The notes beneath the pieces were generated by a model. The model was not told the DNA's origin. It was given only the letters and a program-made list of their open reading frames with translations, and did not search any database. Shown here in pieces: positions 12,267 through 62,423 of a DNA stretch of 64,000 nt. The translations under genes and the position numbers were made by a program. This stretch comes from Dictyostelium discoideum (Eukaryota). Positions within the stretch are counted from its first letter, which is position 1; each line of letters starts with the position of its first letter. The stretch lies in NCBI GenBank assembly GCA_000004695.1, contig CM000151.3, positions 3,584,001 through 3,648,000 of the forward strand. The letters run 5' to 3'.

Positions 12267-12844
12267 TTTATTGAAACATTAAAAAATAATAAAAAAAAAA
12301 AAAAATTAAAAAAAAATCAAAAAAAAAAAAAAAAAAAATCTAATTTCAAAATAAATATCTAAAAAACAAATATACCAGTATTAAATATATTTTTTTTAAT
12401 TTTTTTATATTAATTAAATTGATTTTTTAAACAATAATGAAAAATATATATTTCATTAACCTTTTTTAATTTTATTTTTTTAAGTTTTTTAATTTCTAGT
12501 TTTTAATTTATAAATGATATCATCTTCTTTTCAAAATGCCATAGTAATAAAATTATTTTCAAAAATGAAAATATTAATTATTTTTTTTTTTTTTTTAAAA
12601 TTTCATTTTCATTTCATTTTCCTCCACATCACTAAACATATAATAGAATTTAAATAATGTTTTACAATAAAATAATAATAGTATTATATTTTATTTTTAA
12701 AAAAAAAAATGAAAATCCAAATAAAACCACCAATTTCAACAATCATGATTTTTTAAAAATATCTTTTTTTTATTTTTAGTTGACTGCACAAAAAAAAAAA
12801 AAAATAAATATCTGACAATTAATTTAATTCATTTCAATTTTAAT

Positions 12845-12946
12845 TTTTTCAATAATAATCACTCTTTTGATTTTTTTTAATGCCAAAGATATTTTAAAAT
12901 AAAAAAAAAATTAAAAAAAAATCAAAAGAGTGATTATTATTGAAAA
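12845..12946. repeat. Perfect 33-bp inverted repeat (hairpin/cruciform-capable) with ~33-nt spacer, ~80 bp upstream of the ATG of tgr-like copy A.
   Basis: 12845-12879 ttttcaataataatcactcttttgatttttttt is the exact reverse complement of 12913-12946 aaaaaaaatcaaaagagtgattattattgaaaa. The spacer contains ccaaagatattttaaaat. Confidence 0.8.
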
Positions 12947-13026
12947 CATTAAAATTGACATGACGAAAAAAAAAAAAAAAATAATGCATATTGTTTTTAT
13001 TATTGTTATTATCAGTCAAATAGAAA

Positions 13027-17879
<4,853 letters not shown>

Positions 17880-17962: not shown

Positions 17963-18317
17963 AAAACTCTATTTAAATTTCCCCCCTTTTTTTTTTTTAT
18001 TGTGCGGATTGGCCAAACCAAACACTTTTTAATATTTTTTTTTAAATTTTTCAAATCAAACACTTTTTTTTTTTATTTTTTTTTTTTATTTGTTTTTTTT
18101 TTTTATTATTTTTTTTTTTTTTATTATTTTTTCTTTTTTCACCTTTTGGTATTGATTTTTTTTTTTTTCAGACCAGAAGTTTAGGTTTTGGCGATAAAAT
18201 CCAATGAACAGTTTTTTGTTTTTAATTAGAGAAAAAAAAAAAAAAAAAAAAAAAAAAAATTAGTACAAATATTTATATTCAATCTAAAATAATAAAATAT
18301 AATACCTCTAGAAGAAA

Positions 18318-18600
18318 ATGAGCATTCATTCTTTTAGGTTTCATTATATTATTGCTATTATTACTATTATTACTACTATATTGCTATTGCTATCACTATT
18401 GTTACTATTATTACTACTATATTGCTATTGCTATTACTATTATTACTATTATTACTACTATATTGCTCTTGCTATTACTGTTATTACTATTATATTATTA
18501 CTATTACCATTACTACTATATAGCTATTGCTATAACTATTGATATTAATATTTCTATTTCTATTACTATTATATGTATAATTAATTATATTATTATTTTG
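18318..18600. repeat. Imperfect minisatellite built on (CTATTA/CTATTG)n units (ctattattactactatattgctattgctat...).
   Basis: Visible degenerate tandem hexamer/30-mer periodicity; it generates the spurious poly-L/Y/I ORFs 18318..18642. Confidence 0.6.
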
Positions 18601-19340
18601 GTTTTATTAATTATGTTTTTTAAATTGTTTTTATTATTATAAACTAAAAGTGGTTTTTTTATTTAAAATAAAAAATGATCATTTGATTTTAACCAAAAAT
18701 ATAGATGTGATGGTTTAATATTATAATGGCCATAGTTTTTATAAATGAACAATTGTATTTCATTTTATTTATAGTTGGTTAAAATAATGAGTGAATTTTT
18801 TTTTTTTTAACTGTAAAACATTACCCTTTTTTTGAAATAAAAAGAAAATTAAAAAAAAAAAATCAAATTATATTAAATTAAAAACAGTTGGAGATATTTT
18901 CCCCCACTTTTTTTAAAATTAAAAAAAGAAAATAAAAATAAAATAAAAAAAAAATCTTTGATCAAAAATATATTAACTCGGTTGCAATGAAATATTTTAA
19001 GTATTTAAATAGATTTTTTTTTTTTTAACTTTAATTATTTTATTCACTCATATTTTATTTATCTATTATTTTTTTTTTTTCATATTTATTTTATTTATTT
19101 ATTATTTATTTATTATTTATTAATATCATTTTCGTTTATATATTTAAACATACCTCAATTTTATAATGGACTCAACCAAACTATATTGTAATCACAAACT
19201 CAATAGCAATTGCACCAGCCAAAAAAGAAGGGGTTCTACACCATGCCAACCATGCCCAGGATATCCTAAAAAATTAAAAATTTGTTAGAGTTGTTCCTTT
19301 CATCCAAAGGTAATTTGTTTATAAAATAAACAATAAAACT

Positions 19341-19412
<72 letters not shown>

Positions 19413-20190
19413 TAAAATAAATAAATTTTTTTTTATTTTCAAAGAAATTTTAGTATAAAACATTTTTATTGTGTAGTTTTAAATTTTTAAAATTAAAAAC
19501 AAATAAATATTCATAATGATTAACTTGGAAAGTTTTTTAATATTTTATAGTGAGTTTAAACCCTTTTTTTATTTTTTTTATTTTTTTTTTTTTTTTTTTT
19601 GTTTGACTTGGGTGAATTTTTTTAGTGTACACCGTTTAGAAAGCGAAATTTCAAAAAAAATTCCCTTCAACAATTAATTTGCTAAAAACGCACAATATTA
19701 ATTTTTTTTTTTTTTTTATAAAAACTCTATTAATTATTTCCCCCTTTATTATTATTTTTTATTTACAAATGAAAAATGAAACTTTAATTACATTTATGTA
19801 AAAATAATAAAGAGTTTACTTTCACTATTTGATTTAAAGATAAAATAAATTACTATTACTCTTTTCAAGTTTTAATTGGCGAAAAATTAAATTTTGATCC
19901 AAGATTTATCAAAATTTTTCTCACACATTCCGATTATAAAAGTTTTAAGTATGTTGAGTCCAATGAAAAATTTCCAGAAATAGCTCCTCAAAGTGTTTAC
20001 CCAAGTAAGTAAAAATTTTTTAAATTTTTAAAATATAAATAACCTTGTTCTAATTAAAATAAAAGTTTTAGATTTACCCTCACTTTTTCAAAGCATTCAA
20101 AAAAAAGAACATATAACTCAAGATTTAGTTAAACCCTGTTCGAGTATGTATTCATTTTTTTTTTTTTTTTTTTTTTTTTTTGGTGAAAAA

Positions 20191-21231
20191 TAAAAAATTT
20201 CCCAACCTTTTTTTATGTATCATTAAATGATATAATGAAAGAATGTATTTTCATATCAATGGATTTCAATGGTGGAGGTGATGCTTTAGTTGCTGAAGAT
20301 TTAAATCATTCAGATGAAATTGTATTATGTAAAAGGTTATTCAAGATCAGTTTTAGGTCTTTCTTTTTCTAATTCAAAATTAAATAAATTAAATGGAAAT
20401 GAAAATAAATTATTTAATTTAAATGATACGTTACTGAATATTGTAAAAAATAGAACTGATCAAACCAAACCATTAGCAATTTTCATTCATATTGATGAAT
20501 TTCAAATGGCACACCAATATGCAAAAGGATTTGGTAGTCAATATGATAATTTCGTTAAAAAAATGATATAGGCATTAGGAACATTCAAATGTACAGGTAA
20601 TAAAATTAATAAATCAAACGCACACAATAACAATATTTTCATCATACCATTTTTAACTGGAACCAATTCCGATTCATTAGAGATCGTTTTATCAAAATGG
20701 GAGATAGAGAATATAAATATTAAACCATTATCATATGAGTCATCAAAATTAAAAATTAAAAATAATGTTAAATATTTTCCACAATTAGATAATAATTTTT
20801 TTAAAATAATGGTTATCGATCTTGGTATTGTTCCAAGATACTTGGAATATTTGATATCTGATTTAGATGATCATTTTAATTCAATAAAACAAAGAGAACA
20901 TTTTAATAGTTACGGTTCAGATGCATTGATAGATATAGAAAATGAATCGGTTTCAATTCAAATGGTATCCAAATTTGGATTTTCACTCAAAAAACGTATT
21001 CAAAGAATGAGAATTGGTGGCTTCAATGATGAAACTTTGGAAACATTATTATGTTATTGTATATGTGGTAAATCAATCCAAGAATTATCATATGGCGGTC
21101 ACATCATCACACAAAATAGTAAAGGTAATGGTAATTTTAAAATCATCCTTCCTGTTATTGACTTAAACACTATGGCAACCAAATTAAATTTATTCGAATT
21201 TCAAACTATCACACAATTTCCATTATCTTAA
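20191..21231 (+). pseudogene. Fragmented ORF of unknown function. ~345 codons are open in one frame apart from a single in-frame TAG (20569-20571), and there is a frame switch near 20300.
   Basis: ORFs 20314..20571 and 20809..21231 share a frame and the 237 nt between them is also open (ALGTFKCTGNKINKSN...KIMVIDLGIV...). They are separated only by TAG. Upstream, ..DFNGGGDALVAEDLNHSDEIVLCKR is in a different frame. This could be a pseudogene, an unannotated intron arrangement or a sequencing error. Confidence 0.25.
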
Positions 21232-22160: not shown

Positions 22161-24407
22161 TTATGATAGTTTTTTTAATTTTCTATTAAATGTTTTTACA
22201 AATTTATCGTCTTTCCACTTTTTTATAATAAAATAAGAAGCTGCAACAACAACGACAGCAGCAAAAGCAACGGAACCAATAATAATACCAGCGAGTTGAG
22301 AACTTGTTAGTTTTGATTTATTTGATGTACAAATTGAATTATTATCATTATTTGATACTGGTTTACTATCTACTAATACTGAAAAGTCTGGATCAATAAT
22401 TATTGATTGTTTATAATTTGGTATTGTAATACCAATGAATGATTGTGATATTGATGATGTTTGAATTGAGTTCATTTTTGAATCTAATAATTGATTTTCA
22501 ATTGAAGATACTTTTGAATCGATGATTGCTCTTTTAATGAATCTACCATAAAGTGAATGATCATCAATTTGAATTTTAAAGAAGTTTGAATTATCACCAT
22601 CGCTTGTATCTCCAAATACTTTTAATGAACAAGTATCTTTGGAAGTTGATGATTCGAATAATGCTGACATTACAAGTTGAAGACTATTTAATTGATTTAA
22701 AAATTTATATTCTGTAATTTCAATTGTATATTTAATACTTGATGGATTCATTGTTATATTATTATTTGCAAATTGAATGATTGTTGTTTGATTGAACCAT
22801 TCTAAAGTTACAGTAATATTGGTTGTTAATGTATTTGTTGATTTTGTATCACCACTTTGAATACTTGTAAAGTATTGACTTTTAATATTATTAATTGGTG
22901 TATAAATCCATTTATCAAATGTATATAAATTAACTTAATTTGAATTAAAATCTAATTCTCTTAATGATACAATTGAAATCAATGATTTGAATAAATAATT
23001 TGTACTATTTGATGTTTGATTATTGTTATCGATAATTGGTAATTCAGTTGATGGTTGTGATGTATTTGTTGATGGTTGTGGTATAATTATAACTTGTGAA
23101 TTACAATCATTACCAATCCAAGGTGGATAACAAACACATCCACTTGATGAACAATATCCTTGTTTTGATCCACCACATAATGGTTCACCTAAACATGTTT
23201 GAGGTTTATTCGTTGGTATTGGTGATGATGTAGGTGTTGACGATGACGAGTCTATTGAAGAAGATGATGATGATGGATTTGGTGTTGGGGATTCTGTTGG
23301 TAATTCTGTTGGAATTGGTGGTACAAAACGAATATCAAATACTAATGGATAAACAGTGAATTCATTTGAAAAGAAAGCTTCTTGTACTTTGATAATGAAT
23401 GGTTTATCAGTTGGTTTGACATCATTGATTAACATTGCATTTGGATAACTTATAGTTGGTATTGATGTTTGTGTAAATGTTGATTCACCATAATATTTAA
23501 TTAATACTACAAGATTTGAAGAAAAGAAACCAGCACCTATTATCCATAATTCGCCACCACTTGTTGTAATTTGAGAAACTCTATAGATATCTAACCTTTT
23601 AGCAAGTCCTGATGATACTGCTTTCATTGAAAACTTATACGGGAATAGAATTCTTAGTGAGTCGCTTGAATAACCACCATAACAACCACCATTATTAATT
23701 AATCCATAAACACTGAATGTAATTTCTGAAGTGTACAATACACCTCTTGGTAAGTAAACGTAACATTGATAGGTTGCAGAGGTGATATTCTTTGATTTAA
23801 TAATTGTTTCACATTCAAATATTTGAAATTCAATTGCTTCAACGTAAACCATTGGATATTGAAGATCTTTTAATCCACTTTCGTAATCAGTTGCTTCAAA
23901 TGAGAAATATACTTCCATATGTCCATCTGCAGGAATAGCTACTTGTGGTGTAAATAATGTTAAAATTGGTGGTGAACTATCGATACCATCATTTTCACCA
24001 CTACACTTTTTATATAATTTATTTATTGTTGAGTCTAATAAATAATTTATAAATGGGTTATTAACACCACCACCTACAAATGATTCAGATACTGAAAAGT
24101 AGCAACCAATACCTTGAGTATCATATAATTTAACTTGTGTGATAATATAATTTTGAGATGCACATTTACTTGGTAAAGTTATATTAATTTGATAATCACC
24201 ATTAAATTTATCACCTCTTGTTAAATTTTGAGTTGTTAAATGGAATTTATAAGTTGAACTATCCATTTCACCTCTAACTATAATATCAGCATAATCAAAA
24301 CCATTAATTGGATCATCTATTGTAAATTTCCAACCAAATTCATTTGTTGAATTAACCTTTTCAATATTACTAAATATTGGTCCATATCCATCGAAATCTG
24401 TAGATTC

Positions 24408-24489
<82 letters not shown>

Positions 24490-26989
24490 TTGAAAACTAT
24501 TGATAAATTGTATTTATACCTATATTATAGATACTTACTTGATAATGTTACATATAGTTGTGCAGATGATGGTAAGAATTCACTATCTAAAGGTGTTGAA
24601 TAAGAGTTGATAAAGAATCTATATGGAATATGACCAGGTTGGGTATTTGCAGGTATTTTAAATTTAATTTGATACATTGATATTGTTGAATTCCAAGTTG
24701 AAAAGTATAGTGTTGAACTGTTGAAATGGTATTTACTATTCTTTACTAATGTAACTACGTCCATTAACATAAATCCAATTGGTTTTTCATCATTATCCAT
24801 TCTACCTCCATTATATGTAAAATAAACTACATTATCAACTGATTTATTTATTATATCGATAAAATTATTAAAAAATGTAATATTATTAATAAGTAATAAG
24901 TTATTATTATTATTATTATTTTTATTATTATTTTCATAAAATGAATCAATTTTTAAAAGTGGATTAACTGAATAATATTGACCGATTGAATATGTTTCTG
25001 TTTGTCCCAATCTATCGAATACAATAAATTTGTCAATTGGATATCTGTATGTATCTATAACTGCTGCAAATACAATTTCATCACCTATACTTTCACTATC
25101 TATCATTGATTCATATCTTAATGCAATTGTATTGACATCACCAATACCAACAAATGCTTCATATCCATTATCTTTTACCCTAAATTTTAATAAATAATTT
25201 CCTGAAAATAAATGAACCCATTCAAATTTTAAAAGAATTGGTGCATTTACAGTTGGTGCAACTATAATTTTTTTTTTTTTTTTAAAAAAAAAACAGTTTA
25301 TGTTTTAATGATAATAATAATAATAATATAATAAAAATATATATTAATATTAAAAAATTTAAATATTATTATTATTAATTATTATTTTAAATTTATTTAT
25401 AATAAATTATATACATACTTATATTTGAATTAATGTTGATTAGATTTGTTTTATCAACAGTAAAAACTTTTGGTGAACTAATGAGAGCCTTGTATCTCAA
25501 AAATGAAGCGGATACATTATAATTAAAATTATTACCACTTCCAAAACCAAATGGCCATTGAAAATCTTTTGTGAATAAACCAAATGAATAGGTTGTTGTT
25601 AAGAAATTAAATTGATTTGATGTGGTAATTGTAAACATTGATGAATTTAATAAAAAAATACCATCACTATTAAAGTATGTAACAATAAATGGATTTGGAA
25701 CAAAAGGTTCTTTACTAAATTCTAAATAAAATTATAATAATAAAAATTATTATCATTACTATTAAAATTCATTTATAAAGATATATTTTAAAATACTTAC
25801 TTGTAATATTTAAAATTGGTGTTTCATAGATTTTTATTAAAGAATTATTAAACTCTGAATAAATTGATAATTTTGAAGGTGCTGAATTAATAAGTTGACC
25901 TAAATATGTTACAGTTTTGTCATTTTGATATATTGGTGTTATTTGAGAATAGTTGCTAAACCCATTATTAACTTGAATATAAGGTTCATAATCAACACTG
26001 GTTTTATTTATTGTAACTGAATAAAGTGGAGAATTGTCATATCCATATTCAATTATATTTGTGCTTTCACTTGGATAAATTACAACTTTTGAATTGCTTT
26101 CATCAACATTATAATCTAAAAAATAATAAAATTAAACGAGGATTAATTATTTTTTGAAATTTTTAAATAAAAAAAAATAAAAAAATAAAAAAAAAAAATG
26201 AAAAGTGCAAGTTCAAAAAAAAATAAAAAAAAAATACCTACATGAACTAAATGATGATGGAAATTTTACTGTAATATTATTACCATTATTAAATAAAAGT
26301 GAAATTATATTTTCTTTTGTTAAATTTTGAAATTGATAATCAGAAAATGAAAAACTATTTGGAAATGTTGGTTTGACATTGAAAATTCCCCCACTCGAAC
26401 TTAATGATTTTAGTTTATTTTTTAATCCTGTAAATTGAATAATTCCATTCATTCCTGATTTAGATTTTTTAAAATTATTTGTTAATAAAACCTTATAACC
26501 CAAAGAATTAAATTCAATTACTTTTAAAAAAAAAAATTAGCAATTTAAATAATTTTTTAAAATATTAAATTAATTAATTTAATGGGGCAAATACAAACAT
26601 TCACATTTATAAGATATTGAATAATTTTGTTGAATTTTAATACCATCTGAATTTTCATAAGTTGATGTTAATATTAGACTATCATTTCCTAATGGCAAAT
26701 TTAAACCATTAAAAGATGCATATGCATGACCATCTTTAGTTATAAATGATGATGTATCCAAAACAAAAGATTTAGATAATAAAAATGAAAATGAACTTCC
26801 AGAATAATTTATTATATTAACAGTTTGGATAAAAAATTTAAAATTAAAAGAACAAGTTTGTGAATTTGATGAATCAGGATATACTATATACGAATTTGCT
26901 TCTGAAATATCTGTTATGTTCAATGATTGACTATTACAATAATTTAAAAAAATACAATAAAATAAATACAAAACAAAATTTTTATTCAT
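22161..26989 (-). pseudogene. tgr-like copy B, full multi-exon unit with an in-frame nonsense codon (CAA->TAA, + coords ~22933-22935) and a divergent cytoplasmic tail. Exons ~26989..26590, ~26503..26213, ~26125..25800, ~25720..25393, ~25250..24525, 24400..22161.
   Basis: ORFs 26579..26989 (signal peptide MNKNFVLYLFYCIFLNYCNS), 26213..26503, 25393..25638 (WPFGFGSGNNFNYN), 24525..25106, 22935..24266 and 22161..22751 are all in compatible frames. The ORF 22935..24266 ends ..SLRELDFNSN* where paralogs read ..FNSNQVNLYTFDKW (aattcAaattaagtt vs aattcgaatcaagtt). The downstream ORF continues in the same frame. The intron at 24401-24524 is almost pure (ATT)n. The EGF-like module reads CLGEPLCGGSKQGYCSSSGCVCYPPWIGNDC. 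Confidence 0.65.
24405..24488. repeat. (AAT/ATT)n microsatellite forming most of the homologous intron of copy B.
   Basis: Directly visible. Flanked by ..LSSKYL|GTAAGT (24525) and an acceptor before ..DFDGYGPIF (24400). Confidence 0.9.
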
Positions 26990-27786
26990 TTTAATTAATT
27001 ATACAAAATGATTTTTAATATTAAAAAAAAAAAAAAAAAAAAATGAAAAAAAAAAAAAATACTAAAAATATTTTTCTATCCAACATTTAACAATATTCAA
27101 ATATTAACAACCCTGGGTCCAATTTTTTTTTTTTTTTTTTTTTTTTTGAGTGCAAATAATCATCGGTCGGAAAAAAAAAATCTTTGGTCGGAAAAATAGA
27201 TATTTTAAAAAAATAAATGGAAATGAAAAGCAAATGTCATGAATTATAATTTTTTAAAAAAACTCAAAAAAAAATTGATTTTTTTTTTTTATTTTTTTTG
27301 TAAGATAAAAACATCATCGTCAAAAGTAATTTAATGCGGAGCTGGCCTCTTTTTTATTTCCTACCCAAAGGGAGGGTCCCTTATTTTTTTGTTTAATTTA
27401 AATAAAAAAAAAAAAAAAAAAAAACTTTATTTTGATCATTTTGAAGTAAAAAAAACGAGGAAGCTAAATTTAGAATTAAAAAAAAAAATTTCATAAAATT
27501 CCTCAATTAAATTTATTATTTGAAGTTAAAAAAATGGTGAAAAGAAAAAAAAAAAGAAAAAAAAAAATTATCGTTCCAAAAATCATGATATTTTTTATTT
27601 TTTTTTTTTTCATTATCACTATTTTTATTTTTTTTTCATTTTTTATTTTTATTTTTATTTTGGATTTGGTTCGATAACCAAACAGAGGTGGTTTTTTTGG
27701 TTTTAATATAAAAAAATAAAAAAAAAATAAATAAATCCATTAAAAAAAAAAAAAAAAAACCAATTTAAAAAGATTAAAAACCTACA

Positions 27787-29045: not shown

Positions 29046-32000
29046 TCAGTTCATTTTTTGTAATTTGTTTTGTACTTTTCTTTGGAACAAAACCGATTTT
29101 TTGTTTTTCACAACCAAGTAAACAACTGATACAATAACTACAGTGGCAAAAGCAACGGAACCAATAATAATACCAGCGAGTTGAGCACTTGTTAGTTTTG
29201 ATTTATTTGATGTACAAATTGAATTATTATCATTATTTGATACTGGTTTACTATCTACTAATACTGAAAAGTCTGGATCAATAATTATTGATTGTTTATA
29301 GTTTGGTATTGTAATACCAATGAATGATTGTGATACTGATGATGTTTGAACTGAGTTCATTTTTGAATCTAATAATTGATTTTCAATTGAAGATACTTTT
29401 GAATCGATGATTGCTCTTTTAATGAATCTACCATAAAGTGAATGGTCATCAATTTGAATTTTAAAGAAGTTTGAATTATCACCATCGCTTGTATCTCCAA
29501 ATTCTTTTAATGAACAAGTATCTTTGGAAGTTGATGATTCGAATAATGCTGACATTACAAGTTGAAGACTATTTAATTGATTTAAAAATTTATATTCTGT
29601 AATTTCAATTGTATATTTAATACTTGATGGATTCATTGTTATATTATTATTTGCGAATTGAATGATTTTTGTTTGATTGAACCATTCTAAAGTTACAGTA
29701 ATATTAGTTATTAATGGATTTGTTGATTTTGTATCACCACTTTGGATACTTGTAAAGTATTGACTTTTAATATTATTAATTGGTGTATAAATCCATTTAT
29801 CAAATGTATATAAATTAACTTGATTCGAATTAAAATCTAATTCTCTTAATGATACAATTGAAATCAATGATTTGAATAAATAATTTGTACTATTTGATGT
29901 TTGATTATTGTTATCGATAATTGGTAATTCAGTTGATGGCTGTGATGTATTTGTTGATGGTTGTGGTATAATTATAACTTGTGAATTACAATCATTACCA
30001 ATCCAAGGTGGATAACAAATACATCCACTTGGCGAACAAAAACCTTGTTTTGATCCACCACATACTGGTTCACCTAAACATGTTTGTGGTTTATTCGTTG
30101 GTATTGGTGATGATGTAGGTATTGGTGTTTGTGTTGGTGTTGGATCTATAAAATTATAAACTATTGGATTGACAGTGAATTCATTTGATGTGAGTGGTAG
30201 GTCTGAAACTTTGATAATGAATGGTTTATCAGTTGGTTTAATATTTTTAATAAACATTGCACTCCAATAAACTGTAGTTGGTACTATTATTTGATTAAAG
30301 CTTGAGTCTCCTTCATATTTTACATATACTTGTTGCGTTGAATTGAAACATCTACCTGTTATCCATAACTCGCTATCAAATGAATTAAATTTACTGCATT
30401 TTGTGATTTGTATTACTTTATTAAAAGCTATATTATTAATTGTATATATAAAAGATAAATTATTTAGTGATTCGCTTGAATATCCGCTATAATAACCGCC
30501 ATTATTAATGAATCCATAAACACTGAAAATAATATCTGAATTGTATCCAAATCCTATTGGTAAATTGATGGTACATGTATAGGTTGCAGCTGTTTCGTTT
30601 ATTGAAATAATAGATGATACACATTCAAGTGTTTGTGCTTCTATTGTTTGAATGTAAACAATTGGATATTGTTTATCTTTTAAACCACTTTCAATATCTA
30701 CTGCTTCAAAGTTGAATAATAAATATTGAGTACCATCACTATTTTGTCTTAATATTGGTATGAATGAAGTTAAAATTGGTGGTGAACTATCGATACCATC
30801 ATTTTCACCACTACATGTTTTATATACTTTATTTATTGTTGGATCTGATAAATAATTTATAAATACATTTTTAATACCATCTATTCCATTAACTACTGAA
30901 AATTCACCTGAATAACCTTGAGTATCATATAATTTAACTTGTGTGATAATATAATTTTGAGATGCGCATTTACTTGGTAAAGTTATATTAATTTGATAAT
31001 CACCATTAAATTTATCACCTCTTGTTAAATTTTGAGTTGTTAAATGGAATTTATAAGTTGAACTATCCATTTCACCTCTCACTATAATATCACCATAATC
31101 AAAACCATTAATTGGATCATCTATTGTAAATTTCCAACCAAATTCATTTGTTGAATTAACCTTTTCAATATTACTAAATATTGGTCCATATTCATCGAAA
31201 TGTTTAGAAACAACTATTAGTTGTGATGATAAAGGAAACATATCATTTGTTATTGCTCGAAAACCACACCATAAAAAGAAACTGAGTGGACCAGGTCTAG
31301 TGTTTGCAAGAACTGTAAATTTAATTTGATATTTTGAAATTGTTGAATTCCAAGTTGCAAACTTTAAACTATTGAAATCTATATTAGAATCTGTGGTATT
31401 ACTATTTAAAATAAAAAGTGAGAATGAAGCTGAAGGATTACTATGGGTTTGAGTACCATTATAATTGAAATAAATTATATTATCAACTGATTTATTTGCC
31501 ACATCAATATAATTTTTTAAAAATGTAATATTTTCTATTAAAACAGGTAATATTGTTGGAGCTTTATAATCTATAACTGAAAATGGATTAATTGAAAAAT
31601 AACTATTTAAATAATAAACTTGACTCTTTTTAAAAGTTGAATCTCCAATAGATAAAAATTGAAAACCACGCCCTTTAAAATCATAAACAATTTCATATAT
31701 ATTATTTTCAGCATCTACCAATGATTCTTGTCTATATATTCCATTTGCATCATCATCATTAATTTGAATGAAAAGATTATAACCAATCTCTTTATATGTT
31801 GGTTTTATTTTAATTCTTAATAAATGAAATTGTTCAAAAAGGTATATAACTTTACATGATTCTAATTCTAATGGTAGTAATGATGAATTTATTGCTATAT
31901 TTAAAAATATTTTTTAATGTTAGTAATTGTTTTGAGTGTGTGTGTGTTGTTCGGTAGTAGTTTAGAATATTAATGATTTTATATGTGTATATACTTACTA

Positions 32001-32717
32001 TTGTCTATTTGAATATTTAAATTTCGATTATTAAAGGTCAATAAACCAAAATTGTTTGGCGAATATGTGGGTTTTAAAAATGATGCTTTTAAAGAATAGT
32101 TTGAATTTTGACCACTTTCAAACCCAAATGGCCAACTAAAGATATATTGAAAACCTAAATTCCATCTAAAATAAAATGAAAATGTTTCATACTGGGTATT
32201 TGAATTGAATCCAAATGAAAACATTGTTGAGTTTAATGTTAAAGGTACTGATATTGGTTCAACAATGACATTTGGAAATGTAAAATTAAAATTATCTATT
32301 CATTTTTTTAAAAAAAAAAATTAAAATAATGTCAATAGAAATTAATCTTTGATATATGTATATATTAAAAAGTAATTAAATTTAATTTTAACAAACTTAC
32401 TAAAAACATTTAAATTTGGATCACTATAAATTGTTGTTAATGAGTTATTAATTTTTGCGAAAATAGAATATTGTGTATGAACTTGGCCAATGAATGTTGT
32501 ACCTTTTCCTGGTATTTCATATGATGGAGTTGGAATATTATTTGTAATATCTTCAATAAATAATGGATCATATTCAATGGTTTCATTTAATGTAATAGAG
32601 TAAACTGGTGAACAATTAATTCCAAATTCTTTAACATCAGTTTGGTTTGGGTAGATCTTAAATGTAATATCCTTTTCTTCTACATTCATTTCTTAAAATA
32701 ATAATAATTTTAATATC

Positions 32718-32748
<31 letters not shown>

Positions 32749-33105
32749 ATTATTATACTTACTTGAAAAATATAAAAAAGGAATTGTAATATTTACAGTA
32801 TATTGTTGATCTGAACTATCCAAGAATCTTATTGATATATTAAACTCTGATATTAAATTATTTTTATCAAATCCTACACCAACAAAGAATAAATTTGAAT
32901 ATCCCTCTAAGCTCATTGCAACATTTGAAGGACTTGAAACATTTAGCAAATTTAGTGGATATTTTAAACCTGCAAAGTGTATTGTTGCTGTATAAGGAAA
33001 AAGTGTAAATTTATAATTGTTACTTGTTAAAACATTGACCTTCATCAATTCTCGAGGGATATCTATAAAATTGATATTAAAGTTAATTATTTTTTTTTTT
33101 TTTTT

Positions 33106-33150
<45 letters not shown>

Positions 33151-33571
33151 GTTTTATATACAAACATTCACAAGAATAAGTTATTGAGATATTTTTATAA
33201 ATAATTTGATCATTTTGCAATGTTGCATTTATTAATAATGTATAAGTATTTGGTGTTTTATTTTTAACTATAACTGTGGCAATTCCTCCATATTCTTTCT
33301 TATTGATTAGAGAGACTGTTGCATCTGTGTCATTGGTGAAAACCATCAAATTTGTTCCACTATTCGAGTAATCAACTATTGCAATCGAAAAAACATATGA
33401 ACAAATTTTTTGATTTGTTGAATCTGGGTATCTATTATAAGCACCTTCTTCTTGATTTGTAATATCATACAATTGAAACTGTCCTTCAACCCCAATTATT
33501 AAATTATTTATTGTTGAAAAGCTATTTATTATCGCCAATGTTAGGATTATCAATAAAATTTTCTTTATCAT
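29046..33571 (-). CDS. tgr-like type-I transmembrane receptor, copy C (apparently intact). Exons 33571..~33160, ~33048..32746, ~32689..32342, ~32224..31979, ~31908..29046.
   Basis: Signal peptide MIKKILLIILTLAIINSFS. Exon ORFs 32746..33048, 32342..32689 and 31979..32224 contain WPFGFESGQNSNYSLK. The 891-aa last-exon ORF 29046..31721 extends upstream to an acceptor at ~31908. It carries EGF-like CLGEPVCGGSKQGFCSPSGCICYPPWIGNDC, TM AGIIIGSVAFATVVIVSVVYLVV and tail KNKKSVLFQRKVQNKLQKMN*. There is no intron at the position where A and B have the microsatellite intron. Confidence 0.8.
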
Positions 33572-33737
33572 TTTTTTTTTTTGTTTATTTAAACTTGCAA
33601 TAAGTTTTTTTTTTTTTATTAAAACAACAAAAAAAAAAAAAAAAAACTTGCCCTTTAGCAAACATTTTTTTTTATTTTTGCTTTTTTTTTTTTTTTTACG
33701 ATTTGCTGAGCTAATAAAAGATATTTAAAAAAAGATA

Positions 33738-33770
<33 letters not shown>

Positions 33771-34472: not shown

Positions 34473-37400
34473 TCAGTTAATTGTTTGTAATTTCTTTTGT
34501 ACTTTTCTTTGGAATTTTTTTGATTTTCTGTTTTTCACAACCAAGTAAACAACTGATACAATAACTACAGTGGCAAAAGCAATAGAACCAATAATAATAC
34601 CAGCGAGTTGAGCACTTGTTAGTTTTGATTTATTTGATGTACAAATTGAATTATTATCATTATTTGATACTGGTTTACTATCTACTAATACTGAAAAGTC
34701 TGGATCAATAATTATTGATTGTTTATAGTTTGGTATTGTAATACCAATGAATGATTGTGATACTGATGATGTTTGAATTGAGTTCATTTTTGAATCTAAT
34801 AATTGATTTTCAATTGAAGACACTTTTGAATCGATGATTGCTCTTTTAATGAATCTACCATAAAGTGAATGATCATCAATTTGAATTTTAAAGAAGTTTG
34901 AATTATCACCATCGCTTGTATCTCCAAATACTTTTAATGAACAAGTATCTTTGGAAGTTGATGATTCGAATAATGCTGACATTACAAGTTGAAGACTATT
35001 TAATTGTTTTAAAAATTTATATTCTGTAATTTCAATTGTATATTTAATACTTGATGGATTCATTGTTATATTATTATTTGCGAATTGAATAATTGTCGTT
35101 TGATTGAACCATTCTAAAGTTACAGTAATATTGGTTGTTAATGTATTTGTTGATTTTGTATCACCACTTTGAATACTTGTAAAGTATTGACTTTTAATAT
35201 TATTAATTGGTGTATAAATCCATTTATCAAATGTATATAAATTAACTTGATTTGAATTAAAATCTAATTCTCTTAATGATACAATTGAAATCAATGATTT
35301 GAATAAATAATTTGTACTATTTGATGTTTGATTATTGTTATCGATAATTGGTAATTCAGTTGATGGTTGTGATGTATTTGTTGATGGTTGTGGTATAATT
35401 ATAACTTGTGAATTACAATCATTACCAATCCAAGGTGGATAACAAATACATCCACTTGATGAACAAAAACCTTGTTTTGATCCACCACATACTGGTTCAC
35501 CTAAACATGTTTGTGGTTTATTCGTTGGCATTGGTGATGATGTAGGTATTGGTGTTTGTGTTGGTGTTGGATCTATAAAATTATAAACTATTGGATTGAC
35601 AGTGAATTCATTTGATGTGAGTGGTAGGTCTGAAACTTTGATAATGAATGGTTTATCGGTTGGTTTAATATTTTTAATAAAAATTGCACTCCAATAAACT
35701 GTAGTTGGTACTATTTGATTAAAGCTTGAGTCTCCTTCATATTTTACATATACTTGTTGCGTTGAATTGAAACATCTACCTGTTATCCATAACTCGCTAT
35801 CAAATGAATTAAATTTACTGCATTTTGTGATTTGTATTACTTTATTAAAAGTTATATTATTAATTGTATATATAAAAGATAAATTATTTAGTGATTCGCT
35901 TGAATATCCGCTATAATAACCGCCATTATTAATGAATCCATAAACACTGAAAATAATATCTGAATTGTATCCAAATCCTATTGGTAAATCGATAGTACAT
36001 GTATAGGTTGCAGCTGTTTCGTTTATTGAAATAATAGATGATACACATTCAAGTGTTTGTACTTCTATTGTTTCAATATAAACAACTGGATATTGTTTAT
36101 CTTTTAAACCACTTTCAATATCTACTGCTTCAAAGTTGAATGATAAGTATTGAGTACCATCACTATTTTGTTTTAATATTGGTATGAATGAAGTTAAAAT
36201 TGGTGGTGAACTATCGATACCATCATTTTCACCACTACATGTTTTATATACTTTATTTATTGTTGGATCTGATAAATAATTTATAAATACATTTTTAATA
36301 CCATCCATTTCACCAACTACATAAAATTCACCTGAAAAGCCTTGAGTATCATATAATTTAACTTGTGTGATAATATAATTTTGAGATGCACATTTACTTG
36401 GTAAAGTTATATTAATTTGATAATCACCATTAAATTTATCACCTCTTGTTAAATTTTGAGTTGTTAAATGGAATTTATAAGTTGAACTATCCATTTCACC
36501 TCTCACTATAATATCACCATAATCAAAACCATTAATTGGATCATCTATTGTAAATTTCCAACCAAATTCATTTGGTGAATTAATTTTTTCAATATTACTA
36601 AATATTGGTCCATACGCATCGAAATGTTTAGAAACAATAAATAGTTGTGATGATAAAGGAAACATATCATTTGTTATTGAAGATTGATAACCACACATTA
36701 AAAAGAAACTGAGTGGACCAGGTCTAGTGTTTGCAAGAACTGTAAATTTAATTTGATATTTTGAAATTGTTGAATTCCAAGTTGCAAACTTTAAACTATC
36801 GAAAACTATATTAGATTCTGTGGTATTACTATTTAAAATAAAAAGTGAGAATGAAGCTGAAGGATCACTATGGGCTTGAGTACCATTATAATTGAAATAA
36901 ATTATATTATCAACTGATTTATTTGCCACATCAATATAATTTTTTAAAAATGTAATATTTTCTATTAAAACAGGTAATATTGTTGGAGCTTTATAATCTA
37001 TAACTGAAAATGGATTAATTGAAAAATAACTATTTACATAATAAACTTGACTCTTTTTAAAAGTTGAATCTCCAATAGATAAAACTGAAAATCCACGCCC
37101 TTTAAAATCATAAACAATTTCATATATATTATTTTCAGCATCTACCAATGATTCTTGTCTATATATTGCATTTGCATCATCATTAATTTGAATGAAAAGA
37201 TTATAACCAATCTCTTTATATGTTGGTTTTATTTTAATTATTAATAAATGAAATTGTTCAAAAAGGTATATAACTTTACATGATTCTAATTCTAATGGTA
37301 GTAATGATGAATTTATCGCTATTTTTAAAAATATTTTTTAATGTTAGTACTTGTTTGTGTGTGGGGTGTGTGTGTGTGTTATTCAGTAGTAGTTTAGAAT

Positions 37401-38976
37401 ATTAATGATTATATATGTATATTAGAATATTAATGATTATATGTATATATACTTACTATTGTCTATTTGAATAATAAAATTTTCATTATTAAAGGTCAAT
37501 AAACCAAAATTGTTTGGCGAATACGTGGGTTTTAAAAATGATACTTTTAAAGAATAGTTTGAATTTTGACCACTTTCAAACCCAAATGGCCAACTAAAGA
37601 TATATTGAAAACCTAAATTCCATCTAAAATAAAATGGAAAAATTGCATACTGAAAACTTGAAGTGAACCCAAATGAAAACATTGTTGAGTTTAATATTAA
37701 AGGTAATGATACTGGTTCAACAATGACATTTGGAAATGTAAAATTAAAGTTTTCTATTCATTTTTTTTTAAATAATGTCAATAGAAATTAATCTTTGATA
37801 TATGTATATATTAAAAAGTAATTGAATTTAATTTTAAAAAACTTACTTGAAACATTTAAATTTGGGTTACTATAAATTGTTGTTAATGAGTTATTAATTT
37901 GTGCGAAAATAGAATATTGTGTATAAACATAACCAATGAATGTTGTACCTTTTCCTGGTATTTCATATGATGGAGTAGGCATACGACGTGAAACATCTTC
38001 AATAAATAATGGATCATATTCAATGGTTTCATTTAATGTAATAGAGTAAACTGGTGAACAATTAACTCCAAGTACTGTAACATCGGTTTGGTTTGGATAG
38101 ATCTTGAATGTAATATCCTTTTCTTCTACATTCATTTCTTATAATAATAATAATTTTAATATCTTATTTTTTTTTTTTTAAATTTAATTATTATACTTAC
38201 TTGAAAAATAAAAAAAAGGAATTGTAATATTCACAGTATATTGTTGATCTGAACTATCCAAGAAAAGTATTGATATATTAGACTCTGGTACAAAATTATA
38301 TTTATTAAAATCTACACTAACATATAATAAATTTGAATAAAAATTATTTATGTTTATCCAAGAAGGACTTGAAACATTTAGATAAGATATTTGATATTTT
38401 AAACCTGTAAAGTGTATTAATGTTGTATAAGGATTAATTGTAAATTTATAATTGTTACTTGTTAAAACATTGACCTTCATCAATTCTCGAGGGATATCTA
38501 TATAAAATTGGTATTGAAATTAATTAATTATTTATTTTTGTTTTTTTAATTTTAAATTTTATATACAAACATTCACAAGAATAAGTTATTGAGATATTCT
38601 TATAAATATTTTGACCATTTTGCAATGTTGCATTTATTAATAATGTATAAGTATTTGGTGTTTTATTTTTAACTATAACTGTGGCAATTCCTCCATATTC
38701 TTTCCTAATGATTTGATAGACCATTGCATCTGTATCATTGGTGAAAACATTCAAAGTTGCCCCACTATTCGAGTAATCAACTATTGCAATCGAAAAAACA
38801 TATGAACAAATTTTTTGATTTGTTGAATCTGGGTATCTATTATAAGCACCTTCTTCTTGATTTGTAATATCATACAATTGAAACTGTCCTTCAACCCCAA
38901 TTATTAAATTATTTATTGTTGAAAAGCTATTTATTATCACCAATGTTAGGATTATTAATAAAATTTTCTTTATCAT
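34473..38976 (-). CDS. tgr-like type-I transmembrane receptor, copy D (apparently intact, near-identical tandem duplicate of C). Exons 38976..~38530, 38483..38184, 38135..37788, 37682..37437, ~37322..34473.
   Basis: Same exon architecture and >95% nucleotide identity to copy C over most of the 5.4-kb unit. Signal peptide MIKKILLIILTLVIINSFS. 891-aa last-exon ORF 34473..37148. Tail KNRKSKKFQRKVQKKLQTIN*. Confidence 0.8.
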
Positions 38977-39205
38977 TTTTTTTTTTTAAAAAAAAAAATA
39001 AAAAAAAAAAAAAAAAAAACGTTCCCCATTTTTTTTTTTACGATTTGATAAAGATATTTATAAAAAGATATTTATAAAAAGATATTTTAAAAAAAAAATT
39101 AAAAAAAATATTTTTTGAATTTCAAGACTACCTCACAACAAAATTTCATTGTTTTTATTTTTTATTTCTTTTTTTTGATCCCAACAAACACATTATAAAT
39201 GGTAC

Positions 39206-42925: not shown

Positions 42926-45900
42926 TCAGTTCATTTTTTGTAATTTGTTTTGTACTTTTCTTTGGAATAAATCTGATTTTCTGTTTTTCACGACCAAGTA
43001 AACAACTGATACAATAACTACAGTGGCAAAAGCAACGGAACCAATAATAATACCAGCGAGTTGAGCACTTGTTAGTTTTGATTTATTTGATGTACAAATT
43101 GAATTATTATCATTATTTGATACTGGTTTACTATCTACTAATACTGAAAAGTCTGGATCAATAATTATTGATTGTTTATAATTTGGTATTGTAATACCAA
43201 TGAATGATTGTGATACTGATGATGTTTGAATTGAGTTCATTTTTGAATCTAATAATTGATTTTCAATTGAAGATACTTTTGAATCGATGATTGCTCTTTT
43301 AATGAATCTACCATAAAGTGAATGGTCATCAATTTGAATTTTAAAGAAGTTTGAATTATCACCATCACTTGTATCTCCAAATTCTTTTAATGAACAAGTA
43401 TCTTTGGAATTTGATGATTCGAATAATGCTGACATTACAAGTTGAAGACTATTTAATTGATTTAAAAATTTATATTCTGTAATTTCAATTGTATATTTAA
43501 TACTTGATGGATTCATTGTTATATTATTATTTGCAAATTGAATGATTGTCGTTTGATTGAACCATTCTAAAGTTACAGTAATATTAGTTGTTAATGTATT
43601 TGTTGATTTTGTATCACCACTTTGAATACTTGTAAAGTATTGACTTTTAATATTATTAATTGGTGTATAAATCCATTTATCAAATGTATATAAATTAACT
43701 TGATTTGAATTAAAATCTAATTCTCTTAATGATACAATTGAAATCAATGATTTGAATAAATAATTTGTACTATTTGATGTTTGATTATTGTTTTCTATAA
43801 TTGGTAATTCAGTTGATGGTTGTGATGTATTTGTTGATGGTTGTGGTATAATTATAACTTGTGAATTACAATCATTACCAATCCAAGGTGGATAACAAAT
43901 ACATCCACTTGATGAACAAAAACCTTGTTTTGATCCACCACATACTGGTTCACCTAAACATGTTTGTGGTTTATTCGTTGGTATTGGTGATGATGTAGGT
44001 ATTGGTGTTTGTGTTGGTGTCTCTGTTGGTGTTTCTGTTGGTGTTTCTGTTGGTGTTTCTGTTGGTGTTAAGGGAATCGTAAAATTATAAACTATAGGAA
44101 TAACAGTGAATTCATTTGATGTGAGTGGATAGTCCGAAACTTTGATAATGAATGGTTTATCAGTTGGTTTAATATTTTTAATAAACATTGCACTCCAATA
44201 AACTTTATTTGGTACTATTATTTGATTAAATCCAGGTTCTCCAAAATATTTTACATATACTTGTTGTTTTGTTGAATTGAAACCTCTACCTGTTATCCAT
44301 AACTCGCTATCACCAGATACAAATTTGCTACAGGTATTAATTTGTATTACTTTGTTTATGGATATATCGCTCATTGAATATATAAAAGATAAACTATTTA
44401 GTGATTCGCTTGAATATCCGCTATAATAACCGCCATTATTAATGAATCCATAAACACTGAAAATAATATCTGAATTGTATCCGAATCCATTTGGTAAATT
44501 GATAGTGCATTTATAGGTTGAAGTTGTTTCATTTATTGAAATAATAGATGATACACATTCAAGTGTTCTTAAATCTGTTGTTTGGATATAAACAATTGGA
44601 TATTGTTTATCTTTTAAACCACTTTCAATATCTACTGCTTCAAAGTTGAATGATAAGTATTGAGTACCATCACTATTTTGTTTTAATATTGGTATGAATG
44701 AAGTTAAAATTGGTGGTGAACTATCGATACCATCATTTTCACCACTACATGTTTTATATACTTTATTTATTGTTGGATCTGATAAATAATTTATAAATAC
44801 ATTTCTAATACCATTAAATCCACTGGATACTGAAAATTCACCTAAATAACCTTGAGTATCATATAATTTAACTTGTGTGATAATATAATTTTGAGATGCA
44901 CATTTACTTGGTAAAGTTATATTAATTTGATAATCACCATTAAATTTATCACCTCTTGTTAAATTTTGAGTTGTTAAATGGAATTTATAAGTTGAACTAT
45001 CCATTTCACCTCTAACTATAATATCAGCATAATCAAAACCATTAATTGGATCATCTATTGTAAATTTCCAACCAAATTCATTTGTTGAATTAACTTTTTC
45101 AATATTACTAAATATTGGTCCATATTCATCGAAATGTTTAGATTCAATAATTAATTGAGAAGATAAAGGTAAGAAATCACTTATTAATGAACTTGAATAA
45201 CCACAAAGTAAAGCAAAACCAAGTGGACCAGGTCTAGTATTTGCAGGAACTGTAAATTTAATTTGATATTTTGAAATTGTTGAATTCCAAATTGAAGTTG
45301 TAATATTATCATAATCTACGACTCCAGTTACTTTAAACTCATGAGATAAAATTAAAAATGAGAAATTAATTGTATCATCTTTAGGTTCTTGAGTACCATT
45401 ATAATTGAAATAAATTATATTATCAACTGATTTATTTGTTACATCAATGTTATTTATTAAATAAGTTACATTACCAATTAAAACTGAAATCATATCAGAA
45501 TATTTAAAATCAAGTTTTAAAAGTGGATCAATTGAATAATATTGAAATGGATTATAAAATTGAGATTGTCTTGAATAAGAATCACCAATATTTAAACTAT
45601 TTAATATACCTTCATGAAAATTTAAAACAGTTTCATATATATTGTTTTCGATATCAGGCATTGAGTCATATCTTAATACTTGATTAACATTATCATTAAT
45701 TTTAATAAAAGTACTGTACCCTTTACTTTGATAAATTGGTTTTATTTTAATCTTAAATAAATAAACTTGATTATATAAATGAGTAGAATTAAATGATTCT
45801 AATTCTAATATTGGTAATGTATTTATATCCACAACTATTATTTATAATAAAATTATTTTAATTAATATAATAATTTTATTAAATAATAATAAAAAATAAA

Positions 45901-47044
45901 AAAAAACAATTACCTTGTTGATTACTAATTTGCGTTAAAGAATGATCTTGATTGAAATAAAGTGAGTTGTAGGGATTTACAGAGATTTCAGATTGTAGAA
46001 ATGATGACTTGAATGAATAATTTGAATTATGACCACTTTCGAAACCAAAAGGCCATTTATAACTATTTGAAAAACTTTCAAACCATCTAATTGAATAATT
46101 GAATAAATCAAATTTTTTAGTTGAATTAAATTTAATTGAAAATATTGATGAAAGTGAAGGTAATGGTGGTGAATAATCAATTTGAAAAGATGGAAATTTT
46201 CTATCAATATTATCTATATATTTAAAAAACAATAATAATAATATTATTAAAATTATTAACAAAAATGATTTTTTAAAATAATAAAAATAAACAATAATAA
46301 AAAAAAATAATAATAATAATAATAAACTTACATGAGACCTTTAAAAATTGATAATAAATTGTAGTTAAGGTGCCATTAATTTGAGCACCAATTGAATAAT
46401 CGGAAGAAACTTGACCAAGGAATGTTGTACCTTTTCCTGGCATTTCATAAGATGCCCATGGATTTAAACCTATATTTTCATTAATAAACAATGGGTCGCT
46501 TAATCCAATTGTTTCATTTAATGTAATAGAATAAATTGGTGGACAAATAAATCCAAATTCTATAACATTTGTTTGATTAGGATAAATTTTAAATGTAATA
46601 TCCTTTTCTTTTACATTTGAATCTGAATTTTTAAAATTATAATTTAATATATTAATTTTTAAAATAATAATAATAATAAAAACAATAATAATAATAACAA
46701 TAATTACTTACTTGAATAAATTAAACTTGGAATTGTATAATTTAATGAATAAGTATTATTTGAACTATCCATGAACCATAGTGATATATTAAAATCTGGT
46801 TTAATAAATCCATTAAATTCGTCACCAATATGATAGACAAATGGCCTTATATTATCAACTTTTACATTATACGGTTTGTCAACTTGTAATTGACCCAATG
46901 GGTATTTTAATCCTGTAATGTACATTATTGTTGAAAATGGGTAAATTGGATGCTTATATTTACCAGTATGATATAAATTTATTTTCATTGATTCTCGTGG
47001 AATATCTATTTAATTTATTTAATTATTTAATTAATTATTTATTT

Positions 47045-47103
<59 letters not shown>

Positions 47104-47521
47104 CTTAAAAAAATAATCAATACAAACATTGACAAGAATAATTAATTATAATACTACTATAAATTGATGTATCATTATCATATTCTGCCGTAATTAATAA
47201 TGAATAATCATTTGGTGATTTAGTATTTACATAAATTGGAAGAACTTGACTTGAAATATTTTTAAATGCTGGTGTTGAAATTGTTGCGTCTGAATCGTTG
47301 GTTTTTATTTTTAATTGAACTCCAGTATCTGAAGTATCGGTTACAAATATTAAGAAAAAAAAATTACAATATTTGTCATTTGTATTTGTTGGATATTTAT
47401 TATATGAGTATTCTTCACTAGAAACATCATAAATTTGAATTGCTGGATTTCCTTCAACCCTAAAAATTTGTAATATTACTATTATTATTAGAATTAATAA
47501 TAGTATTCGTTTTCTGATCAT
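42926..47521 (-). CDS. tgr-like type-I transmembrane receptor, copy E (apparently intact, more divergent N-terminal modules). Exons 47521..~47120, 46988..~46704, ~46491..46273, ~46262..45879, ~45841..42926.
   Basis: Signal peptide MIRKRILLLILIIIVILQIFRVEG. Modules end ..YSCQCLY and ..WPFGFESGHNSNYSFK. 968-aa last-exon ORF 42926..45832 carries an extra (TPTE)4 linker (44018-44070, 12-bp tandem gtttctgttggt). The EGF-like module is CLGEPVCGGSKQGFCSSSGCICYPPWIGNDC. The TM/tail is identical to copy C/D type (..KNRKSDLFQRKVQNKLQKMN*). Confidence 0.8.
47046..47103. repeat. Poly(T) homopolymer tract of ~55 nt in an intron of copy E.
   Basis: Directly visible. Generates the spurious ORF 46928..47116. 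Confidence 0.9.
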
Positions 47522-47864
47522 TTTTTTTTTTATATTTAATATGAATAAATAAAAAAAGAAGAAAAAAAAAATTCACAACTGCAATTGCAATCAAAAAAAA
47601 AAAAAAAAAAATTTTTCTTCTCAGTTTTTTTTTAAAAAAAAAAACATATCTAAAAATATCTTAATAATTTTTCGATACCGAACAGCCTGGGCCAATCAGA
47701 AAAAAAAAAATTAAAAAAAAAATAAATTTTTATCAACAAAAATCCAAAAACCAAAAAAAACTGATCTGTGTGTTTGAATGTTGGATTGTATTGGATTGGT
47801 GTTACAATCAAAAAAAATGACAAAAAATGATATTAACAAAGAATAAATGAATTATGGTAAATAG

Positions 47865-48342: not shown

Positions 48343-48510
48343 ATGTTATTAGATAACGACGCATTCCTTTCAGCATTAAACAAATTATATCAAACTACAT
48401 CAAAAAAAGGAACTGTTTGGGTCACAATGAAGAAATGTAAGATATTTTATTATATTTTATTTTATTTTATTTTATTATCAACTTTACATATAATCTAATA
48501 TATACCATAC

Positions 48511-48565
<55 letters not shown>

Positions 48566-48892
48566 ACACACACACACACACACATACATATATATGAATT
48601 ATTCATTATTATAGATGTAGATTCAGATTCAAACTTTTCACGTAAAAAAGCAGAAAGAATTAAAGAATCAGAAGAGGAAGAAAATAAATGTTTAGTTAGA
48701 GCAACAAATGGTAAAAAAAAGATATCAACAATTGTTCTCGCTAAAGATAAATCAATGTTTGAAAAGAATTATAAAAATGTTTTACTTATTAATTTAGATA
48801 ATCTTAAAGTTGAGAAAAAGAAACCTACTCCCACCACAACTCCTAGTTCTTCAACTACTGCAAAAACTGCTGCAAAGAAAACTAAAGTCTAA
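48343..48892 (+). CDS. srp14: Signal recognition particle 14 kDa subunit (SRP14). Exons 48343..48436 and 48615..48892.
   Basis: MLLDNDAFLSALNKLYQTTSKKGTVWVTMKK|YVDSDSNFSRKKAERIKESEEEENKCLVRATNGKKKISTIVLAKDKSMFEKNYKNVLLINLDNLKVEKKK.... This is collinear with metazoan SRP14 (MVLLESEQFLTELTRLF...ITLKKY...NKCLLRATDGKKKISTVV...). Donor aaat|GTAAGA, acceptor ttatag|AT. The C-terminus is Thr/Ala/Lys-rich, as in SRP14. Confidence 0.85.
48497..48590. repeat. (CA)n/(AC)n dinucleotide microsatellite (~45 units, two CATA interruptions) inside the srp14 intron.
   Basis: Directly visible: acacacacacac...catacacacacac...catacatatatat. Confidence 0.95.

Positions 48893-57807: not shown

Positions 57808-59317
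<1,510 letters not shown>

Positions 59318-60878: not shown

Positions 60879-62423
<1,545 letters not shown>

Follow-up and report, generated by a model that had tools for sequence, protein, structure and literature searches.

The motif AAAGATATTTT recurs about 80–220 bp before five paralogous genes in a 64-kb stretch of the Dictyostelium discoideum AX4 genome (the window, meaning the whole stretch of DNA analyzed) and before their relatives in sister species, which makes a role in promoter control very probable. The motif is enriched, positionally constrained, recurrent across species, and associated with the 5′ side of genes. It does not match a canonical GATA site, and a chance origin is excluded. 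The pattern of its occurrence favors a transcription-factor site maintained by selection, a reading to which we give a probability of roughly 0.6. The motif would then be a functional, orientation-independent proximal-promoter element common to the ComC-like genes of the discoideum/citrinum/firmibasis lineage, lying about 80–170 bp upstream of the ATG, adjoining or overlapping TATA-like sequence, and often present in two or three tandem copies. A sequence-specific transcription factor would bind it and thereby co-regulate the paralogues, and selection would have retained it while the surrounding A/T-rich promoter diverged past alignment. We infer the binding of a protein, the identity of that protein, and the regulatory output of the element from sequence patterns.

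A ComC-like gene family

The window, with a base composition of about 20% G+C, contains five paralogues, all of them multi-exon:

13027..17879, plus strand: gene A, multi-exon ComC-like EGF-domain protein gene, ATG at 13027
22164..26989, minus strand: gene B, ComC-like paralogue, ATG at 26989
29049..33571, minus strand: gene C, ComC-like paralogue, ATG at 33571
34476..38976, minus strand: gene D, ComC-like paralogue, ATG at 38976
42929..47521, minus strand: gene E, ComC-like paralogue, ATG at 47521

An earlier reading of this DNA, made from the letters alone (the sequence-only reading), had described these genes as tgr-like. Pfam does not bear out that description. It recovers DUF7035, DUF7034, DUF7949 (EGF-like), and the ComC supersandwich domain (ComC_SSD) in 5/5 copies, with E-values of 1e-12 to 1e-38, and no IPT/TIG domain was detected at E ≤ 0.1 in the exons or in the full-length proteins P0001, P0010, and P0012. 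Because the ComC architecture is found in every copy and IPT/TIG in none, the family consists of ComC-like EGF-domain proteins and not of IPT/TIG tgr proteins. The same DUF7035/DUF7034/DUF7949/ComC architecture is shared by 78 dictyostelid homologues. P0001 corresponds to the AX4 "EGF-like domain-containing protein" XP_644341 and has 100% identity to the large exon of gene C. The gene C protein is a single sequence with two AX4 accessions, EAL70416 and EAL71086; chromosome 2 of AX4 has a known duplicated segment, and the paired accessions fit a window located inside it.

The paralogues are mosaics, with 81–88% DNA identity between their 3′ halves and at most 68% between their 5′ halves. Genes C and D are the only pair alike throughout (93% nucleotide identity), and B and C share a 1021-bp tract that is 96% identical. 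This distribution suggests that the C-terminal ComC supersandwich/EGF part may be homogenized by gene conversion while the N-terminal part diversifies. In the orthologous cluster of D. cf. discoideum (L011), a DDE_Tnp_4 transposase gene (18313–20937) stands between family members, and cluster structure therefore differs among close relatives. Elsewhere in the window, 57811–59100 and 60882–62171 (minus strand) are tandem paralogous ORFs of about 430 aa with nearly identical N-termini, and a (CA)n-type microsatellite at 48490–48600 gives rise to a THTHTH... pseudo-ORF and to a strong A/T-skew spike in the 48–49 kb bin. No non-coding RNA or tRNA was found in the intergenic regions, and un-dusted BLAST of the promoters returned low-complexity noise only.

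Motif copies in the window

Four words are used here for the motif: the 11-mer AAAGATATTTT, the 13-mer AGATATTTTAAAA, the 9-mer core AGATATTTT, and the 8-mer core AGATATTT. The copies associated with the five genes are as follows:

12757–12764 and 12806–12813, minus strand: additional AGATATTT cores of copy A, at −270 and −221 from the gene A ATG
12887–12899, plus strand: copy A site AGATATTTTAAAA, 140 bp upstream of ATG 13027, sense
15611..15631, minus strand: tandem pair AAGATATTTAGATATTTTAAAA in an intron of gene A, two overlapping cores, including the fifth exact 13-mer
27198–27210, plus strand: copy B site AGATATTTTAAAA, 209–216 bp upstream of ATG 26989, antisense
33712..33747, plus strand: copy C array, a 14-bp unit in 2.6 tandem copies
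33719–33726 (AGATATTT) and 33733–33745 (AGATATTTTAAAA), plus strand: copy C sites, 148–169 bp upstream of the ATG, antisense
39050..39093, plus strand: copy D array, the 14-bp unit AAAGATATTTATAA in 3.2 tandem copies
39052–39059, 39066–39073, and 39080–39092, plus strand: copy D cores, 76–111 bp upstream of the ATG, antisense
47645..47663, minus strand: copy E composite TAAGATATTTTTAGATATG, 133–140 bp upstream of ATG 47521, sense
47654–47661 and 47645–47651, minus strand: the parts of copy E, a full core and a half-site AGATATG

The sequence-only reading had located copies A–D correctly to within 1–7 nt and copy E about 6 nt away from its actual position, and the distances listed above for these copies, apart from the additional cores of A, agree with its estimate of about 60–250 bp upstream of the start codons. 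Its description of E as a reverse variant, however, was judged on the genome strand, on which gene A is plus and genes B–E are minus. Read in gene direction, A (12887) and E have sense sites and the other three genes antisense ones, so that E is no exception. Copies absent from that reading are the two additional cores upstream of A (12757 and 12806, minus strand), the intron pair at 15611–15631 (minus strand), and a copy at 12353 (minus strand).

Of the five exact 13-mers in the window, one precedes each of genes A, B, C, and D, and the last is in an intron of A; dinucleotide-preserving shuffles gave an expectation of 0.19, and 0/100 shuffles reached five. The 8-mer AGATATTT occurs 24 times in the 64 kb, and ten of these occurrences fall within the 2 kb made up by the five 400-bp upstream regions. 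Copies of AGATATTT outside the family promoters include 12353 (minus strand), 4254, 52660, and 52690. The first lies 87 bp upstream of ATG 12266, the start of a divergent neighbor of gene A, and the last two form a pair 30 bp apart, downstream of the gene for ribosomal protein L15e. Such copies hint that the element may serve further genes. The intron pair of gene A comes directly after a long (TAA)n microsatellite, and motif-like sites were also seen within family genes of L001 (11933) and L011 (11610).

Enrichment over chance and genomic background

Eleven loci encoding family members were fetched for comparison with the window: orthologous clusters from D. citrinum and D. cf. discoideum, a D. 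firmibasis locus, two D. dimigraforme clusters, loci from D. purpureum and T. lacteum, and unlinked paralogues from other D. discoideum strains, used in place of AX4 P0045. The scored set comprised the window and nine loci from 4–5 Dictyostelium species; it excludes L009 and L010, from D. purpureum and T. lacteum, the T. lacteum gene models being too uncertain for scoring. This set yielded 26 family promoters, and the promoters of non-family genes in the nine loci served as 36 controls. Presence was counted in the 400 bp upstream, and for the newer assemblies the annotated ATGs were used as given.

The core AGATATTTT was present in 18/26 family promoters and 4/36 controls (Fisher p = 2.8e-6, with family promoters that are phylogenetically dependent). 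Setting aside the five window copies, it was present in 13/21 family promoters (p = 9e-5, against a small control set of 36). These p-values are optimistic, because orthologues and the recent C/D duplication deprive the family promoters of phylogenetic independence. Seven of the 26 family promoters have no motif. Densities outside the window show the same contrast, at 2.19 AGATATTTT sites per kb in family upstream sequence, 0.16 per kb in other non-coding sequence (37.7 kb), and 0.05 per kb in genes, as do counts of the 11-mer AAAGATATTTT (nine in 6.8 kb of family upstream sequence, none in the 37.7 kb of other non-coding sequence, and one in genes). In the 26 family promoters together there were 26 AGATATTTT sites, against a mean of 0.85 and a maximum of 6 in dinucleotide shuffles; in those outside the window, there were 20 against 0.65. 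An unbiased k-mer scan returned AAAATATCT/AGATATTTT as the top 9-mer and AGATATT as the top 7-mer, and the motif was still among the top four when the window was removed. The motif thereby passes the refuting test set by the sequence-only reading, a comparison of its frequency with that in other Dictyostelium intergenic DNA.

The sequence-only reading had suggested a family-specific cis-regulatory element. The motif is indeed non-random, promoter-proximal, and associated with the family; its specificity to the family is not established, because the control promoters also hold five AGATATTTT sites against 0.92 in shuffles, an excess of about 5-fold. The motif may mark a regulon broader than the ComC-like family.

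Position, orientation, and anatomy

Aligned sites give the consensus a-A-A-A-AGATATT-T-T-w, and conservation spans 9–11 bp (AAAGATATTTT), the two positions that follow being T in 27/28 and 21/28 sites, respectively. Among 32 sites, 13 lie at −100 to −149 from the ATG, and all are at least 83 bp away from it. In 13/19 motif-bearing genes, the site closest to the ATG falls at −170 to −80 (binomial p = 3e-5). Relative to the gene, 20 sites are antisense and 12 sense. Pairs and arrays are frequent (C, D, E, L003, L006, and the intron of A), and those at C and D are homotypic tandem arrays with a 14-bp period. In intergenic regions where the two sides can be told apart, the motif was found in 13/18 promoters with no family gene before them and in 2/15 3′ flanks with no family gene after them. 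A role as a 3′-end signal was accordingly rejected, as the motif tracks the 5′ side and not the 3′ flanks.

Several further features of these promoters were recorded. A large inverted repeat with arms at 12791–12878 and 12914–13001 has the A site (12887–12899) in its 35-nt loop; the arms are 88 nt long and 77% complementary, and about 30 nt at their core match perfectly. Upstream of gene 4353 in L006 there is a palindromic motif pair with matching flanks. Two of the family promoters contain CCTGGG(T)CCAAT, in which a G/C block adjoins a reverse CCAAT box, at 27112–27123 (B) and 47686–47696 (E); the window has no other copy, and 0.02 were expected. The sequence is retained in part by the D. cf. 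discoideum orthologue of E and has no exact match in the other loci. It may represent a second promoter element of NF-Y/CBF type.

Conservation and shared descent

In the discoideum/citrinum/firmibasis lineage, AGATATTT is present in 18/20 genes; in D. dimigraforme, the motif was found in 1/6, and it was absent from the single D. purpureum promoter examined. Deep conservation was thus rejected, the D. purpureum paralogue having no motif. Within the lineage, the promoters of gene E and of its orthologue in D. cf. discoideum are identical over a 32-nt block that bears the motif, and the adjacent 40 nt contain six substitutions. The motif is also found in the unlinked paralogues L005, L006, and L007, which have only 40–60% protein identity. 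In the promoters of non-orthologous members, only the motif and A/T runs can be aligned. Because these promoters are unalignable and the coding 5′ halves are at most 68% identical, simple inheritance fails to explain the recurrence. Nor do the copies have flanks in common, and a dispersed repeat or transposon was rejected on that ground.

Alternative explanations

The shuffles and the real intergenic background exclude one version of the reading in which the motif is functionless, namely that it is a chance A/T-rich word. The remaining versions, a remnant of duplication or a product of spread by gene conversion or tandem slippage, draw on real properties of the cluster: C and D are recent duplicates with clearly homologous arrays, the 1-kb B/C tract indicates that gene conversion acts there, and 14-bp slippage would explain the differences in copy number. 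The conversion tracts, however, lie in the 3′ halves of the genes and not in the divergent 5′ halves, and between non-orthologous members no promoter alignment extends beyond the motif. Its recurrence in unlinked paralogues and in other contigs and species, with varied orientation and flanks and at a constrained distance from the ATG, makes the absence of function very unlikely. That same constrained distance could suit a core-promoter element, a TATA-box variant or TATA-flanking sequence that positions the pre-initiation complex and is not an activator site. The peak is sharp and keeps clear of the start codon; the motif often abuts or overlaps TATAAA(A/T), as in TATAAAAATATCT in L002, TATAAAAAGATATTTTATAAAA in L007, and TATAAATATCT in D, where the array overlaps TATAAAT sequences on the gene strand; and promoters of the C/D group have a conserved CAAATCGT(A)n block 25–35 bp closer to the gene than the motif, a spacing like that from TATA box to transcription start. 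These blocks of CAAATCGT and an A-run represent a candidate transcription-start region:

33680–33700: block of C
39035–39048: block of D
L011 and L001: blocks of the orthologues

Even so, a TATA box would read TATAWAW in a fixed orientation; the motif does not read TATAWAW and is found in both orientations. Recognition of the A/T minor groove by TBP would leave the invariant G/C pair unexplained, and the presence of two or three tandem copies, with additional copies at −200 to −380 in some promoters, is likewise at odds with a core-promoter role. TATAAAW itself has no positional peak in either family or control promoters, and the motif is found in just four of the 36 control promoters, which need core promoters too. 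We consider a core-promoter element an unlikely explanation.

A GATA-type zinc-finger factor, GtaC or a paralogue, is about equally unlikely to be what the motif serves. The sequence-only reading held that the core contains WGATAR and pointed to GtaC. The motif does include the GATA tetranucleotide, but AGATAT has T where R (A/G) is required, as do all sites, and the opposite strand (ATATCT) contains no GATA. Canonical GATA sites were not enriched: WGATAR was present in 13/26 family and 20/36 control promoters (2.09 vs. 1.90 sites per kb) and AGATCT in 1/26 and 1/36, and neither AGATAA, TGATAA, nor the GATC-type site that the DNA-binding domain of GtaC prefers in vitro (PMC4506546) was enriched in family promoters. 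The conserved 9–11 bp also exceed the typical 6-bp footprint of a GATA finger. A factor of this type would need to tolerate or prefer GATAT. Non-canonical specificities of that kind are plausible given the size of the dictyostelid GATA family, which is very large and rapidly amplifying (PMC6873476), and a "GATA-like" motif is enriched in GtaC ChIP peaks (PMC4506546). The supplements of the GtaC ChIP paper, with tables keyed by DDB_G identifiers, gave no text match for EGF-like or comC.

A candidate class of factor

Relative to these alternatives, a selected transcription-factor site remains the reading that we prefer, and the motif itself points to a class of protein that might bind it. Read on the opposite strand, the 9-mer AGATATTTT is exactly AAAATATCT, the evening element of plants, to which the SHAQKYF-type MYB-related proteins CCA1, LHY, and REVEILLE (RVE) bind (bioRxiv 10.1101/2021.08.17.456723). 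Counted as AAAATATCT (the element also has a short form, AAATATCT), the evening element is found in 18/26 family and 4/36 control promoters. Because of this 9-bp identity, the best candidate class is a SHAQKYF-type single-repeat MYB (CCA1/LHY/RVE-like), an assignment that we offer tentatively. Dictyostelium possesses SHAQKY(F) MYBs, for instance MybE (PMC6278869), and Myb/SANT proteins are among the largest dictyostelid transcription-factor families (PMC6873476). MybE itself, the sole characterized Dictyostelium SHAQKY MYB, recognizes the consensus AAC(a/t)GTT (PMC2845816); MybE was rejected as the factor because AACWGTT differs from the motif and is not enriched in family promoters. The CCA1-binding site AAMAATCT was considered as independent support and looked enriched at first sight, being present in 10/26 family and 3/36 control promoters (p = 0.005), but it failed the shuffle control (9 vs. 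7.4), the family–control difference stemming from depletion in the controls. Because it does not rise above dinucleotide shuffles, it gives no independent support. A local tblastn search with the SHAQKYF domain found no SHAQKYF gene in 336 kb of sequence.

A literature search with the motif string and Dictyostelium returned nothing relevant, and a genome-wide study of Dictyostelium accessibility (ATAC-seq) reports a MADS-box motif only. To our knowledge, few cis-elements have been defined in the extremely A/T-rich Dictyostelium genome, and we know of no site or targets for most of its roughly 250 transcription factors. The element described here is statistically robust, validated across species, sharply positioned, and tied to a growing family of EGF/ComC-like proteins, secreted or membrane-bound; it offers a handle for reporter mutagenesis, for affinity purification of the factor, and for definition of the regulon. 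The analysis also corrects the annotation of the locus, with ComC-like in place of tgr, and withdraws a connection to GtaC and GATA factors that was appealing but unsupported.

Comparison with known systems

There is nothing exceptional in paralogous genes sharing a promoter-proximal factor site. More unusual are the cleanness of the signal, in promoters that contain about 85% A+T, and the exact match of the motif to the evening element. The Dictyostelium core promoter consists of a TATA box followed by an oligo-dT run. The motif resembles it in its A/T-rich flanks, the adjacent TATAAA-like sequence, and the constrained distance to the coding start, and differs from it in being orientation-independent, multi-copy, and largely confined to the ComC-like family, and in having an invariant G. 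With GATA-factor sites such as the GtaC targets it shares the GATA tetranucleotide, a promoter setting, and a host rich in GATA factors; it departs from them in the T at the R position, in the lack of WGATAR and GATC enrichment, and in its span of 9–11 bp. The 14-bp arrays of C (2.6 copies) and D (3.2 copies), together with the paired sites in E, the intron of A, L003, and L006, are like the homotypic clusters of transcription-factor sites that arise by short tandem duplication, and the number of sites commonly evolves in this way.

The likeness to the plant evening element extends over an identical 9 bp and includes a promoter-proximal location, occurrence in either orientation, and the marking of a gene set, for which co-regulation is here predicted. 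The differences lie in the MybE consensus, in a companion CCA1-binding site that is not convincingly enriched, in a factor that is here only a candidate, and in the host, an amoebozoan; we know of no evening-element-based clock in such a host. The module of evening element and SHAQKYF MYB has so far been seen as a plant clock and stress device. It is possible, if on balance rather doubtful, that a CCA1/RVE-like MYB binds AAAATATCT beside a TATA box in Amoebozoa and co-regulates a diversifying, tandemly amplified ComC-like family. Were the factor a SHAQKYF MYB, the specificity of this domain would be deeply conserved beyond plants; were the whole amoebozoan module real, the DNA specificity of this MYB class would be older than the split between plants and amoebozoans.
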